A stretch of DNA of 64,000 nt from the sequence record MN850636.1; one strand, given 5' to 3'. Positions within the stretch are counted from its first letter, which is position 1. Each line of letters opens with the position of its first letter. The position numbers were made by a program, and so were the translations under genes. Shown here in pieces: positions 19,957-21,625 of the stretch. The stretch comes from Escherichia phage dune. Below the pieces are notes generated by a model, which saw only the letters and a list, made by a program, of their open reading frames with translations, was not told the DNA's origin and searched no databases.

Positions 19957-19982
19957 AGTCTCAGCTACATTAAAATGAGACT
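19957..19982 (+). repeat. Hairpin family member: AGTCTCA-gctacattaaaa-TGAGACT
   Basis: 7-bp stem; loop shared with 21339-21366 copy whose stem differs by compensatory changes. Confidence 0.65.
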
Positions 19983-20019
19983 CACCTTTTTAAAAGGCCT
20001 TTTAAGAGGGTCTTTTAAT

Positions 20020-20079
20020 GAGGTGGGGTGGTGTAAGGTGGTGTAAGGTCTGGTTCGGTGTGTCGCGGTAAGGGTGGAT
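20020..20079 (+). repeat. GT-rich tract (region A, tract 2)
   Basis: ggggtggtgtaaggtggtgtaaggtctggttcggtgtgtcgcggtaagggtgg. Confidence 0.6.
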
Positions 20080-20105
20080 GGTAGTAGCCACGTTAAAAAT
20101 CTACC
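20080..20105 (+). repeat. Hairpin family member: GGTAG-tagccacgttaaaaat-CTACC
   Basis: 5-bp stem with related loop. Confidence 0.5.
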
Positions 20106-20181
20106 AAGTTTCTAAAGAGTCTTCTGTTGAGGGTTCTTTACAAACAACTTAACAATCAACTAAAGTGTGGAGCTAAATGCT

Positions 20182-20769
20182 ATGAAACTGTTAAATATCA
20201 AAATCACTGGTACTCGTCCTTTCCTGAGCCATAACGATACGCTGTCAGACCCATTAAACCCTCTGACAAAATATCACAAGTCTCTGTCCAGTAAGCGTAA
20301 AAAGACTGACGAAGACTATGCGCTCTTAGCAGAAAGCCAACTGGTAACTTCTTGTTACTACGATGAGCAACTTGGTTTTGTTATGAACGGTGAGATGATT
20401 GAGGCTTGTATCAAGTCTGGTGCAAAACTCAACAAACTTGGTAAGGTAATTGACCGAGCCATTATGCTGACAGATGTAGTCTTCCCAATGACTATCAAGA
20501 ACTGTCCAGCAAACCCACAAGAACTTGCTAAGAATCCAGACTTTATCTATGCTAAGTCTGTTAAGATTGGTACAGCACGAGTTATGAGCTACCGTCCAAT
20601 CTTCCGTGACTGGTCTGTAGAGTTTGGTTTGATGTTTGATGAAGAGCAAATCACCAAAGAGGAACTTCTGATGGTTCTGGAAAATGCTGGTAACCTTTGT
20701 GGTGTAGGTGATTGGCGTCCACGCTTTGGTCGTTTTTCTGTAGAAGTTATTTCAGAAGGTAACGTTTAA
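20182..20769 (+). CDS. Hypothetical protein (195 aa), first gene of repeat-flanked cassette
   Basis: ORF track; in-frame ATG 20182 after GTGGAG RBS. Confidence 0.55.
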
Positions 20770-20771
20770 TT

Positions 20772-21212
20772 ATGAATACAAAAGCATTAGCAGCAAAGTT
20801 CAGTTACGGTGACACTGTATCACATTCTGAGATGGACACCTTCTTAGGTATTGTGAAGCCAACTTATCAAGGTGACATTGTTAAGTACGAAGATGAAATG
20901 AAGGCTTACGCACTGACACGGTTAAATCGACTTGAGAAGTTTATTGAGAAGCTTCTTAAAGAAGAGAAGATTTATCTGGTTGCTTCAATGGGTGTTGGTT
21001 ATCGTGTGGTTGAACCTAAGCATCAAGCAACTATTGCAAAACGCAAAATGTCTGGTAAAATTGGTCGTGCTTTAAAGCAAGCCACTCAAGCGATTGAGAA
21101 TGTGAACACTATGGCGCTTAGCCATCAAGAACGTTCACGACTGATTGAACAGCAAAACCACTTAGCTGCTATGAAAGCTAACATTAATAAGCAACGTAGA
21201 AAACCTTTCTAA
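20772..21212 (+). CDS. Hypothetical protein (146 aa), second gene of repeat-flanked cassette
   Basis: ORF track. Confidence 0.55.
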   Translation: MNTKALAAKFSYGDTVSHSEMDTFLGIVKPTYQGDIVKYEDEMKAYALTRLNRLEKFIEKLLKEEKIYLVASMGVGYRVVEPKHQATIAKRKMSGKIGRALKQATQAIENVNTMALSHQERSRLIEQQNHLAAMKANINKQRRKPF

Positions 21213-21223
21213 GTTGACTAGGT

Positions 21224-21246
21224 AGCCTCTTCGGAGGCTCCTTTTT
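21224..21246 (+). terminator. Rho-independent terminator (AGCCTC-TTCG-GAGGCT + TTTTT)
   Basis: Perfect stem, tetraloop, T-run; same hairpin core as 4430-4447. Confidence 0.6.
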
Positions 21247-21259
21247 AAAAGGTCTTTAA

Positions 21260-21336
21260 ACAGGGTCTTTTAATGAGGTACGGCGCGGTTAGGTAAGGTC
21301 TGGTAGGGTAGGGTGAGGTTTGGTAAAGTGCGGGTA
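21260..21336 (+). repeat. GT-rich tract (region B, tract 1)
   Basis: ggttaggtaaggtctggtagggtagggtgaggtttggtaaagtgcgggtag. Confidence 0.6.
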
Positions 21337-21338
21337 GT

Positions 21339-21366
21339 TAATCGGAGCTACATTAAAATCCGATTA
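21339..21366 (+). repeat. Hairpin family member: TAATCGGA-gctacattaaaa-TCCGATTA
   Basis: 8-bp stem; loop identical to 19957-19982. Confidence 0.65.
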
Positions 21367-21404
21367 CATCACTTAAGAGTCTTCTAAGAGGGTTTTTAAG
21401 TGAT
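21366..21404. repeat. 10-bp inverted repeat CATCACTTAA(N19)TTAAGTGATG (copy 2)
   Basis: Palindrome seen directly. Confidence 0.6.
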
Positions 21405-21406
21405 GT

Positions 21407-21470
21407 TCGGTAGGGTCTGGTAGGGTAAGGTCTGGTCTGGTAGGGTCTGGTAGGGTGAGGTATGGGTAGT
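21407..21470 (+). repeat. GT-rich tract with tandem GGTCTGGTAGGGT units (region B, tract 2)
   Basis: tagggtctggtagggtaaggtctggtctggtagggtctggtagggtgaggtatgg. Confidence 0.65.
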
Positions 21471-21471
21471 T

Positions 21472-21497
21472 AGTCTCAGCCACATTAAAATGAGACT
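21472..21497 (+). repeat. Hairpin family member: AGTCTCA-gccacattaaaa-TGAGACT
   Basis: 7-bp stem, same stem as 19957 copy. Confidence 0.65.
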
Positions 21498-21539
21498 TAC
21501 CTTTTTAAAAGGTCTTTAAACAGGGTGTTTTAATAAGGT

Positions 21540-21599
21540 GCTGTATGGTGGGGTAAGGTAGGGTTAGGCGAGGTCAGGTGAGTTTTGGTATGGAAGGAT
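21540..21599 (+). repeat. GT-rich tract (region B, tract 3)
   Basis: gctgtatggtggggtaaggtagggttaggcgaggtcaggtgagttttggtatgg. Confidence 0.55.
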
Positions 21600-21625
21600 G
21601 GCAGTAACCTTATAAAAAATCTGCC
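21600..21625 (+). repeat. Hairpin family member: GGCAG-taaccttataaaaaat-CTGCC
   Basis: 5-bp stem with A-rich loop. Confidence 0.45.

Follow-up and report, generated by a model that had tools for sequence, protein, structure and literature searches.

Five hairpins at positions 19957–21625 of the 64,000 nt stretch of phage DNA analysed here (the window) have shared or related A-rich loops on stems of several different sequences. This raises the question of what kind of element conserves its loop and its base pairing without conserving its stem sequence. The initial annotation reported these hairpins, and all five are confirmed in position and in sequence. The window represents a Felix O1-like phage, and the region of the hairpins is 90–96% identical to many Felixounavirus genomes. 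The hairpins are, with high confidence, the conserved 3' tails of the guide RNAs (vrRNAs) of a type II VIPR system in this phage.

VIPR (Viral Interference Programmable Repeat) is a system of RNA-guided gene silencing first described in 2026 preprints (bioRxiv 10.64898/2026.04.26.720920,.720927). As given in the preprint text, a vrRNA consists of 9–16 YNNGG repeats and an invariable 3' tail of ~40 nt, and Vipr is a minimal RAMP with an RRM core, a G-loop and a thumb. The tail of the SUSP1 clade has a conserved structure that includes a pseudoknot. According to the same text, SUSP1 vrRNA transcripts are ~100 nt, co-purify with Vipr and silence their targets, and vap1 enhances protection (bioRxiv 10.64898/2026.04.26.720920,.720927).

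The vipr locus and its guide tracts

The genes and guide tracts of the locus are the following.

19881–19950, + strand: vrRNA1 guide tract, 14 YNNGG units, 9 perfect
20019–20073, + strand: vrRNA2 guide tract, 11 units, 8 perfect
20182–20769, + strand: vipr, 195 aa, RAMP-like guide-RNA-binding protein by homology to PDB 36pp
20772–21212, + strand: vap1, accessory gene, 146 aa, by homology to SUSP1 vap1
21274–21333, + strand: vrRNA3 guide tract, 12 units, 11 perfect
21406–21465, + strand: vrRNA4 guide tract, 12 units, all perfect
21534–21593, + strand: vrRNA5 guide tract, 12 units, 10 perfect

The vipr product is identical in 191 of 195 residues (98%) to PDB 36pp, 'SUSP1 Vipr protein' (E = 6e-128), which exceeds the preprint clade cut-off of 90%. 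The residues that contact GGY are present (H17, E71, M72, R138, C173, D177, W178 and R179). The vap1 product is identical in 145 of 146 residues (99%) to the product of the SUSP1 gene directly 3' of vipr. A Pfam scan assigned no family to either product, and the seven neighbouring ORFs scanned have no cas-like domains and no Pfam family match, DUF2815 included. The locus adjoins replication genes such as those for ligase and polymerase, and there is a strong G-over-C strand bias 3' of the promoter in the locus.

Exactly five YNNGG (GGY/NN) tracts are found on both strands of the 64 kb. All are inside the locus, where they flank the vipr and vap1 gene pair, and one hairpin is directly 3' of each tract (5/5). 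Several units in the tracts of vrRNA1 and vrRNA2 have a degenerate GG. In relatives the NN positions vary and the GGY is kept. The true unit is a box, 11–14 YNNGG repeats and a tail, and repeat analysis gives modules of ~125–133 nt with a 5-nt internal periodicity. The hairpins taken as the unit by the initial annotation are real, but the GGY/NN tract, the pseudoknot and the intervening Vipr gene were overlooked. Since the hairpins cap the 3' ends of five VIPR guide RNAs, the hairpin finding is already explained. The family is genuine and functional, but of a kind already known, and nothing in it is categorically new.

Secondary structure of the tails and compensatory base changes

The five tails and their pairing elements are located as follows.

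19951–19982, + strand: vrRNA1 3' tail, type A1; GUAG at 19951–19954, stem AGTCTCA 19957–19963 / TGAGACT 19976–19982
19964–19975, + strand: vrRNA1 tail loop GCTACATTAAAA; CUAC at 19965–19968 pairs with GUAG
20074–20106, + strand: vrRNA2 3' tail, type B1; GUGG 20074–20077 pairs with CCAC 20088–20091
20079–20106, + strand: vrRNA2 tail hairpin; stem TGGTAG 20079–20084 / CTACCA 20101–20106, loop TAGCCACGTTAAAAAT
21334–21366, + strand: vrRNA3 3' tail, type A2; 5' arm GUAG 21334–21337
21339–21366, + strand: vrRNA3 tail hairpin; stem TAATCGGA 21339–21346 / TCCGATTA 21359–21366, loop GCTACATTAAAA 21347–21358
21466–21497, + strand: vrRNA4 3' tail, type A1; hairpin 21472–21497 with the vrRNA1 stem AGTCTCA/TGAGACT, loop GCCACATTAAAA
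21594–21626, + strand: vrRNA5 3' tail, type B2; AAGG 21594–21597 pairs with CCUU 21608–21611
21599–21626, + strand: vrRNA5 tail hairpin; stem TGGCAG 21599–21604 / CTGCCA 21621–21626, loop TAACCTTATAAAAAAT

Each hairpin is the minimum-free-energy structure in RNAfold, with values of -5.9 to -8.5 kcal/mol. The thermodynamic signal alone is modest, as the z-scores are -1.0 to -3.6, and the main support is comparative. The loop motif GCYACRTTAAAA is present five times in the window versus 0.06 expected, and five or more copies were found in 0 of 100 shuffles. The association of loop and hairpin proposed in the initial annotation holds in the 64-kb window, where four of the five GCYACRTTAAAA occurrences are hairpin loops of the VIPR locus and one is outside. 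The latter, at 50883 on the minus strand, is within a coding sequence and has no hairpin. The type-A tail pattern was found in IMG/VR solely in Felix-like contigs of 51–94 kb, most of them ~87–90 kb. A single GTDB match to the tail pattern, in an archaeal MAG, has neither a complementary stem nor repeats and represents a chance match.

The tail is predicted to be a compact H-type pseudoknot in which bases 1–4 of the tail pair with bases 2–5 of the loop. The pseudoknot helix has three variants, GUAG:CUAC, GUGG:CCAC and AAGG:CCUU, and the second helix is the 6–8 bp stem. The rest of the loop is A-rich (AUUAAAA) and forms the third loop of the knot. The tail loop owes its conservation to four bases that take part in the pseudoknot helix, together with bases just 5' of the stem; this accounts for half of the conserved loop and differs from the role of a simple apical loop recognized by a protein.

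Covariation was assessed in 31 distinct tails, taken from 21 relatives, one satellite and the phage itself, in an alignment registered by hand with N padding. Paired bases are found in 98.8% of cells, versus 26–39% in slid-partner controls, and this bears out the original reading of a shared loop on different, still paired stems. Changes on both sides are present in nine of the 11 pairs, including three of the four pseudoknot pairs. The independent covariation events behind these values are few, because the tails are paralogues with approximately five stem types and three pseudoknot types. The sole pseudoknot mismatch among the 31 tails is in vrRNA4, where the loop GCCAC produces a single A.C mismatch in the helix. 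The compensatory changes include G.U intermediates, i.e., TTCGATT opposite AATCGGA and CUUU opposite AAGG, and such intermediates have meaning only in RNA.

This last property bears on a reading in which the repeats act as DNA, as origin iterons, G-rich tracts that form R-loops or single-stranded hairpin promoters of the N4 kind. The adjoining replication genes and the G-over-C bias 3' of the promoter are compatible with such elements. The loops of N4 promoter hairpins are 3 nt, whereas those of the tails are 12–16 nt. In the closely related SUSP1 locus, moreover, the RNAs are described in the preprint text as detected and as co-purifying with Vipr. Together with the G.U intermediates, this leaves a DNA-level function with a vanishingly small probability. 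The initial annotation's recognized structure is thus best kept in its RNA form, as part of a ribonucleoprotein; the single-stranded DNA hairpin and the structured promoter that it also offered are not retained. Its further suggestion of a processing element finds no backing, as nothing shows that the hairpin, which is the 3' tail of the vrRNA, is a processing site.

An alternative is that the tails simply separate small transcription units, as ordinary terminators or 3' stabilisers, and have no dedicated function in a ribonucleoprotein. Mature vrRNAs end near the tail hairpins in the text of the SUSP1 preprint (bioRxiv 10.64898/2026.04.26.720920,.720927), and TTTTT is present four bases 3' of the type A1 hairpins. 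An intrinsic terminator was taken to require a GC-rich stem, a loop of 3–8 nt and a U-tract that begins right where the stem ends. The tails have loops of 12–16 nt, weak stems (-5.9 to -8.5 kcal/mol) with 2–4 G-C pairs each, and no U-tract that abuts the stem. A terminator scan flags none of the five hairpins, yet it flags the true terminator at 21224. In addition, a terminator needs neither a conserved loop nor a pseudoknot that co-varies with upstream bases, and a satellite vrRNA (see below) has, beyond its tail, a classical GC-rich terminator that is distinct from it. It is very unlikely that the hairpins are terminators or stabilisers of this type. The initial view that they are a selected RNA structure and no generic terminator is upheld by the loop sizes, the absence of an abutting U-tract and the scan.

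A likeness to DUF2815 RNA (RF03084) was also considered; this Rfam family comprises cis-regulatory elements or small RNAs found in phage replication modules. cmscan aligns positions 21463–21524 to this family. The two have in common a GGGUAG on the 5' side, a stem of 7 bp, a loop of 13 nt with CC..AUU.AA and, further downstream, a UAAAAGG. The alignment scores 20.3 bits, below the gathering threshold of 41.2 (E ~1), and only one of the five tails is matched. The RF03084 consensus matched 102 IMG/VR stretches, of which 80 were examined. These 80 genuine DUF2815-type instances lack upstream YNNGG repeats (best-frame 0–2 of 12) and represent 5' UTR elements directly before a ribosome-binding site and start codon. 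The ORFs that neighbour the tails have no DUF2815 domain. The likeness to the vrRNA tail is superficial, and membership is rejected in view of the sub-threshold score, the different context and the lack of GGY/NN upstream in the family; that the hairpins are nevertheless DUF2815 RNAs is exceedingly improbable.

Satellite targets and organization of the arrays

In the published mechanism, as far as the preprint text describes it, one Vipr protomer binds each GGY motif and presents two variable bases; the guide pairs with double-stranded DNA with every third target base skipped, and transcription is silenced. Natural targets in that text have at least 80% NN match by the 1-nt-skip rule, are mostly in satellite phage with the skip at the wobble position, and include no self-targets. 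Cryo-EM is described as showing a Vipr filament capped at its 3' end by the pseudoknot, with the adjoining protomers resolved in all DNA-unwinding intermediates. The preprint text states no role of the tail beyond capping (bioRxiv 10.64898/2026.04.26.720920,.720927). Each vrRNA of the present phage has 11–14 YNNGG repeats and then a tail of ~33 nt. The tail may set the 3' boundary and the register of the Vipr filament, and may protect the 3' end of the mature ~100-nt RNA. Expression, ends and processing of the five vrRNAs are presumed by homology with SUSP1; membership of the locus, the pseudoknot covariation and the satellite targets are established in the present analysis.

The guides target a satellite island in the E. 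coli chromosome; among the products of this island are tape-measure and baseplate proteins with relatives in the phage itself. Matches of 83–96% to the island were obtained for four of the five guides, as scored on six satellite variants, while the maxima of shuffled guides are 71–82%. By the 1-nt-skip rule, 27 of 28 NN positions of vrRNA1 and 20 of 22 of vrRNA2 each match a satellite tape-measure gene, and 21 of 24 of vrRNA5 match a satellite coding sequence. vrRNA3 matches a satellite intergenic region at 20 of 24 positions, with its seven 3'-most units all matched. The skipped base is codon position 3 (wobble) in 3/3 coding targets. The targets emerged only after satellite islands were fetched via the baseplate gene and scored with mismatches allowed; an exact-pattern search of IMG/VR with vrRNA3 found nothing. 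For vrRNA4, no target was found in the six satellites or, by exact pattern, in IMG/VR or metagenome contigs. The window contains no self-target, its best self-match being no better than background.

One satellite that lacks vipr and vap1 carries its own promoter-driven vrRNA with a pseudoknot tail of the phage type. No target of this vrRNA was above background in the window, the first 50 kb of SUSP1 or the six satellites. It has no GGGTYTTTTAA(K) box, which is directly 5' of every phage guide tract. Because the vipr-less satellite keeps the tail without the box, the comparison suggests that the tail may be what a satellite requires in order to use the Vipr of its helper phage and that the box may serve array maturation.

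The box is part of the spacers between modules, which are listed here with the other signals of the locus.

19779–19806, + strand: putative sigma-70-type promoter TTGACA-16-TATACT, 11/12 consensus, 5' of the first vrRNA array and vipr
19837–19875, + strand: spacer S1, inverted repeat CATCACTTAA...TTAAGTGATG around box GGGTTTTTAA, precedes vrRNA1 (sequence, repeat family D3, box survey)
19983–20023, + strand: spacer S2 (CACCTTTTTAAAAGGCCTTTTAAGAGGGTCTTTTAATGAGG) with box GGGTCTTTTA; the final 5 nt of the spacer double as the first guide unit of vrRNA2
21224–21246, + strand: intrinsic-terminator-like hairpin AGCCTC-TTCG-GAGGCT and T-run, after vap1 (terminator scan)
21367–21405, + strand: second copy of spacer S1, with box GGGTTTTTAA (repeat analysis, box survey)
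21498–21538, + strand: second copy of spacer S2, with box GGGTGTTTTA; overlaps the first unit of vrRNA5
21627–21675, + strand: inverted repeat of 12 bp, rich in A/T, AATAAGCTATAA...TTATAGCTTATT, and then a T-run (sequence)

In the relative AYO145A a promoter is annotated at the place equivalent to 19779–19806. A promoter scan gave no sigma-70 promoter for the downstream array. The hairpin at 21224–21246 runs straight into the spacer S2 of that array. The inverted repeat at 21627–21675 may mark the end of the array and is a candidate terminator; it encloses a promoter-like site (21645–21673, promoter scan) for the next operon.

The tails follow a grammar of position. Spacer S2 comes after A1 and spacer S1 after A2; B1 invariably takes the final position before vipr, and B2 that of the downstream array. 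The tail loop CAUUAAAA shows exact complementarity to UUUUAAUG of the box. Tail grammar, conserved box and loop-box complementarity could together represent signals for array processing, assembly and compatibility, a tentative proposal that we regard as possible rather than probable.

In rrn leaders the order is a hairpin, an A/T box and a GT-rich tract. The module order resembles it, and the modules might be read as antitermination elements of the lambda/rrn type (boxB hairpin, boxA spacer, GT-rich boxC) that carry polymerase past the 21224 terminator. That terminator lies between vap1 and a downstream array with no sigma-70 promoter found there. The possible likeness of spacer GGTCTTTAAACA to boxA (GCTCTTTAACAA) extends to 9 of 13 bases. 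GT-rich tracts that are strictly phased as YNNGG, with NN matching satellite genes, have no place in a nut site, and the satellite vrRNA exists without a box. Antitermination is accordingly a highly improbable function of the modules. Both this idea and that of iterons or R-loops were dropped in light of the satellite matches, the identity of Vipr and the phasing of the YNNGG code. Primase-site clusters, protein sponges and pseudo-antitoxin repeats were dropped on the same three grounds.

Comparison with known systems

VIPR is a newly described form of RNA-guided DNA recognition that has been proposed to be older than CRISPR, and no part of its guide RNA other than the tail pseudoknot is both structured and invariant. 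A reading of sequence alone was able to pick this tail out of a phage genome. The locus is an independent, well-populated Felixounavirus example, with five guides, four of them with satellite targets, four tail subtypes and clean covariation.

The closest system is the type II VIPR of SUSP1, which has the same protein (98% Vipr, 99% Vap1; PDB 36pp). [quoted passage not shown] The host genome is a Felixounavirus here and a Suspvirus in SUSP1. Two of the five vrRNAs are upstream of vipr here, versus one of four in SUSP1. The guide sequences are unlike those of SUSP1, and one tail here has a pseudoknot mismatch.

Viral frameshift and telomerase-type pseudoknots are examples of H-type knots with an A-rich third loop. 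The tail has the same a-b-a'-b' topology as these classical knots, where loops 1, 2 and 3 are 2, 1 and 7 nt long and the third, which is A-rich, lies opposite a short helix. Triple-base contacts may be present in the tail. The classical knots serve recoding or catalysis, whereas the tail caps a guide-RNA filament.

The crRNA of class 1 CRISPR, with its Cas6-bound 3' hairpin, consists like the vrRNA of a variable guide and a conserved structured cap, and in both systems RAMP-fold proteins oligomerise along the guide. The analogy with the CRISPR handle is drawn by the VIPR authors in the preprint text (bioRxiv 10.64898/2026.04.26.720920,.720927). The array criterion of 28–37 nt direct repeats, unique spacers and cas genes does not describe the locus, where no repeat-spacer units were found. 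Unlike CRISPR, a VIPR locus is devoid of cas genes and of CRISPR repeats and spacers; its vrRNAs carry the guide information interleaved, as two bases in every five, and have a pseudoknot as their cap.

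Organization of the locus and its protein genes

All five hairpins of the initial annotation are present in the window sequence with the positions, stems and loops assigned to them. The window has five copies of the loop motif, GCYACRTTAAAA, versus 0.06 expected from shuffling. Four copies are hairpin loops of the VIPR (Viral Interference Programmable Repeat) locus, and the fifth (50883, minus strand) is in a coding region and has no hairpin. RNAfold gives each of the five hairpins as the minimum-free-energy fold, at -5.9 to -8.5 kcal/mol (z-scores between -1.0 and -3.6). These energies are modest, and the case for structure therefore rests on comparison and not on thermodynamics.

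Each hairpin ends a longer module, which consists of a conserved A/T-rich box, 11–14 phased YNNGG pentamers (the guide tract) and a tail of ~33 nt with the hairpin. There are exactly five YNNGG tracts in the whole window, both strands included; all are in the VIPR locus, with a hairpin directly 3' of each.

Features of the VIPR locus (window positions)
19779–19806, strong sigma-70-type promoter, upstream of the first two modules
19860–19869, box
19881–19950, guide tract of vr1
20008–20017, box
20019–20073, guide tract of vr2
20131–20140, extra box between vr2 and vipr
20182–20769, ORF, vipr
20772–21212, ORF, vap1
21224, terminator-like hairpin
21263–21272, box
21274–21333, guide tract of vr3
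21390–21399, box
21406–21465, guide tract of vr4
21466–21497, tail of vr4
21523–21532, box
21534–21593, guide tract of vr5

Two modules lie between the promoter and vipr, and three are downstream of vap1 and the terminator-like hairpin; a promoter scan found no promoter for this downstream array. An inverted repeat, GGTGAGTA...TACTCACC (positions 19796–19835), starts within the array promoter, in its -10 region, and would give the primary transcript a 5' stem loop. The 3' arm of this repeat is kept in relatives. The window belongs to a Felix O1-like phage. The 2.2-kb region is 90–96% identical to many Felixounavirus genomes, and three annotated relatives have nothing marked in these intergenic stretches except repeat regions or promoters.

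The ORF at 20182–20769 has no Pfam match, but 191 of its 195 residues are identical to those of the solved "SUSP1 Vipr protein" (PDB 36pp). The ORF at 20772–21212 is identical at 145 of 146 residues to the SUSP1 gene adjoining vipr. VIPR is described in two 2026 preprints (bioRxiv 10.64898/2026.04.26.720920 and 10.64898/2026.04.26.720927). They describe Vipr as a minimal RAMP-fold protein; its guide RNA (vrRNA) has 9–16 YNNGG repeats and ends in an invariable 3' tail, which in the SUSP1 clade has a conserved structure with a pseudoknot. The vrRNA transcripts are ~100 nt and co-purify with Vipr. In cryo-EM structures each repeat is bound by one Vipr protomer, with GGY sequestered and NN presented; every DNA-unwinding intermediate resolves the protomers adjoining the 3' pseudoknot cap (subunits 8–12), and additional protomers appear 3'-to-5'. 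Reading of the target passes over one base after every NN, and transcription is silenced upon binding. The GGY-contacting residues named there (H17, E71, M72, R138, C173, D177, W178 and R179) are all present in the window Vipr. The Vipr and Vap1 identities, the YNNGG modules and these residues together identify the locus as type II VIPR and the hairpins as the 3' tails of its vrRNAs.

Two features elsewhere in the window were also observed. Three direct repeats of ~147 nt, ~250 nt apart (58009–58656), lie in a large ORF and encode an Ig-like domain with the motifs YQWKKDG and AGSYTCVV; the product is probably a fibre or virion decoration protein. Twenty-five tRNA genes are clustered on the minus strand at 49155–53978, which is typical of Felix O1-like phages.

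Structure of the vrRNA tail

The tails of the window, of 21 related phage loci and of one satellite comprise 31 distinct sequences. They fall into four subtypes, which obey a fixed positional grammar.

Tail subtypes (5' bases; stem; loop)
A1: GUAGUU; AGUCUCA / UGAGACU; GCUACAUUAAAA
A2: GUAGUU; AAUCGGA / UCCGAUU (variants UUCGAUU with G.U, and AAUCGAA / UUCGAUU in one locus); GCUACAUUAAAA
B1: GUGGA; UGGUAG / CUACCA; UAGCCACGUUAAAAAU
B2: AAGGA; UGGCAG / CUGCCA; UARCCUUAUAAAAAAU

In all four subtypes, loop bases 2–5 are complementary to the four 5'-most bases of the tail (GUAG:CUAC, GUGG:CCAC and AAGG:CCUU, with a wobble variant, AAGG:CUUU). This pairing is proposed here from the sequences and may differ from the published one. 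Over both helices 98.8% of 341 cells are standard pairs, versus 26–39% with the partners slid by 1–3 columns. Nine of the 11 pairs are changed on both sides, and the observed covariation score was reached by none of 500 shuffles, in a hand-registered alignment of tails that are paralogues with few independent changes. The tails are predicted to fold as a classical H-type knot whose three loops have 2, 1 and 7 nt, the longest being the invariant AUUAAAA. The pseudoknot explains the "conserved loop", as part of that loop is a helix; the remainder probably lies along the pseudoknot helix. The general proposal of the initial annotation, a selected and recognized RNA structure, is borne out, the structure being the vrRNA 3' tail pseudoknot. 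A reading of the tails as simple terminators is excluded by loop size, the absent U-tract, the terminator-scan result and a separate terminator after the tail of a satellite vrRNA.

The vr4 tail has loop GCCAC in place of the GCUAC of other type A tails. This produces an A.C mismatch in the pseudoknot, the only case among the 31 distinct tails. In phage bumzen the vr4 guide is present with a canonical tail.

The DUF2815 RNA of Rfam was also considered and rejected; the match is weak, at 20.3 bits versus a threshold of 41.2. Genuine instances lack upstream GGY/NN repeats and have a 5' UTR position directly before a ribosome-binding site. In IMG/VR contigs (L059–L138) a promoter-like TTTGCAT...TATA element directly precedes the DUF2815-type motifs, which extend to the ribosome-binding site of a gene starting MAQATTKVKV or MTQTTKVK, a position that fits a 5' UTR regulatory element. 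The GGG... 5' end and CCCC loop of this RNA could form a pseudoknot.

Guides and satellite targets

Guides were written as NNx triplets by the published skip rule. In the window itself, no self-target of the five guides exceeds background. The guides of the SUSP1 clade are reported to converge on a satellite phage (bioRxiv 10.64898/2026.04.26.720920, 10.64898/2026.04.26.720927), and a protein of SUSP1 has 72% identity to the baseplate protein of that satellite. With the SUSP1 gene as query, a chromosomal "phage baseplate protein" was found in 474 of 5426 complete E. coli genomes. Six islands of ~11 kb each were sampled from these 474; they contain serine recombinases, a tape-measure gene and the baseplate gene.

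Targets in the satellite islands (locus:position, strand)
L032:9695 (+), vr1, tape-measure gene, 27/28 NN
L031:10270 (+), vr2, tape-measure gene, 20/22 NN
L029:7626 (+), vr5, small coding sequence, 21/24 NN
L030:8595 (-), vr3, intergenic stretch, 20/24 NN, seven 3'-most units all matched

Shuffled guides reach maxima of 71–82%. The best vr4 match in the six satellites is at background (17/24 NN), so no target was found, and an exact vr4 match is absent from IMG/VR and metagenome contigs. The sole guide with no satellite match is also the one whose tail has the pseudoknot mismatch. In each of the three coding targets the skip falls on codon position 3, in agreement with the published account, and many guides of related phages match the same six islands at 80–96%. 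Readings of the modules as DNA-level or antitermination elements fail to explain a phased code with satellite-matching variable bases.

Five of the 14 vr1 units lack GG, yet the target match is near-perfect and includes the NN of these GG-degenerate units. Degenerate units in vr1 and vr2 are TGGTG, TGTAG, TGCTG, TGATG and TGTGT.

Array signals, distribution and relation to known systems

The box, GGGTYTTTTAA(K) or GGGT[CTG][TC]TT[TA]A, is just upstream of every phage guide tract. Two spacer types form inverted repeats around it, S1 (CATCACTTAA...TTAAGTGATG) and S2 (ACCTTTTTAAAAG...CTTTTAATGAGGT). The box is kept in 21 related loci, in some of which the 5' arm of S1 is absent, and could serve as a processing signal of the array or as a leader signal. 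CAUUAAAA, the 3' part of the tail loop, and UUUUAAUG of the box are exact reverse complements (19968–19975 with 20013–20020; 21351–21358 and 21483–21490 with 21268–21275), first noticed as minus-strand matches of the loop motif. Both motifs are A/U-rich, and the complementarity could be a chance one; it could also allow an alternative pairing within the precursor.

Outside hairpins the type A tail pattern, GGGTAGTT-N8-CTACATTAAAA, is essentially absent, which answers the test proposed in the initial annotation. It occurs in 23 IMG/VR stretches, all in Felix-like contigs of 51–94 kb (mostly ~87–90 kb), and 596 Gb of species-representative genomes gave one match, with neither stem nor repeats.

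One satellite (L034, E. coli GN4751 chromosome, minus strand 3057–3126) has its own vrRNA of 14 YNNGG units, with a sigma-70 promoter (TTGACG-17-TATAAT) and no box. Its tail is of type B1, with the stem compensated to GUCG/CGAC and the pseudoknot and loop intact, and is followed by a separate classical GC-rich terminator. No target was found for this vrRNA in the window, the first 50 kb of SUSP1 or the six satellites. No Vipr or Vap1 homologues were found in the six satellites by tblastn, and satellite vrRNAs would have to use the Vipr of the helper. That some satellites encode vrRNAs is stated in the preprints (bioRxiv 10.64898/2026.04.26.720920, 10.64898/2026.04.26.720927).

The available text of the preprints has no discussion of the box, and that of the discovery preprint does not describe cleavage of type II arrays into single guides. 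The hairpins belong to the pseudoknot that caps VIPR guide RNAs as their 3' tail and has been described before, and the remaining interest is only in array processing and tail function. The locus falls inside the published SUSP1 clade.
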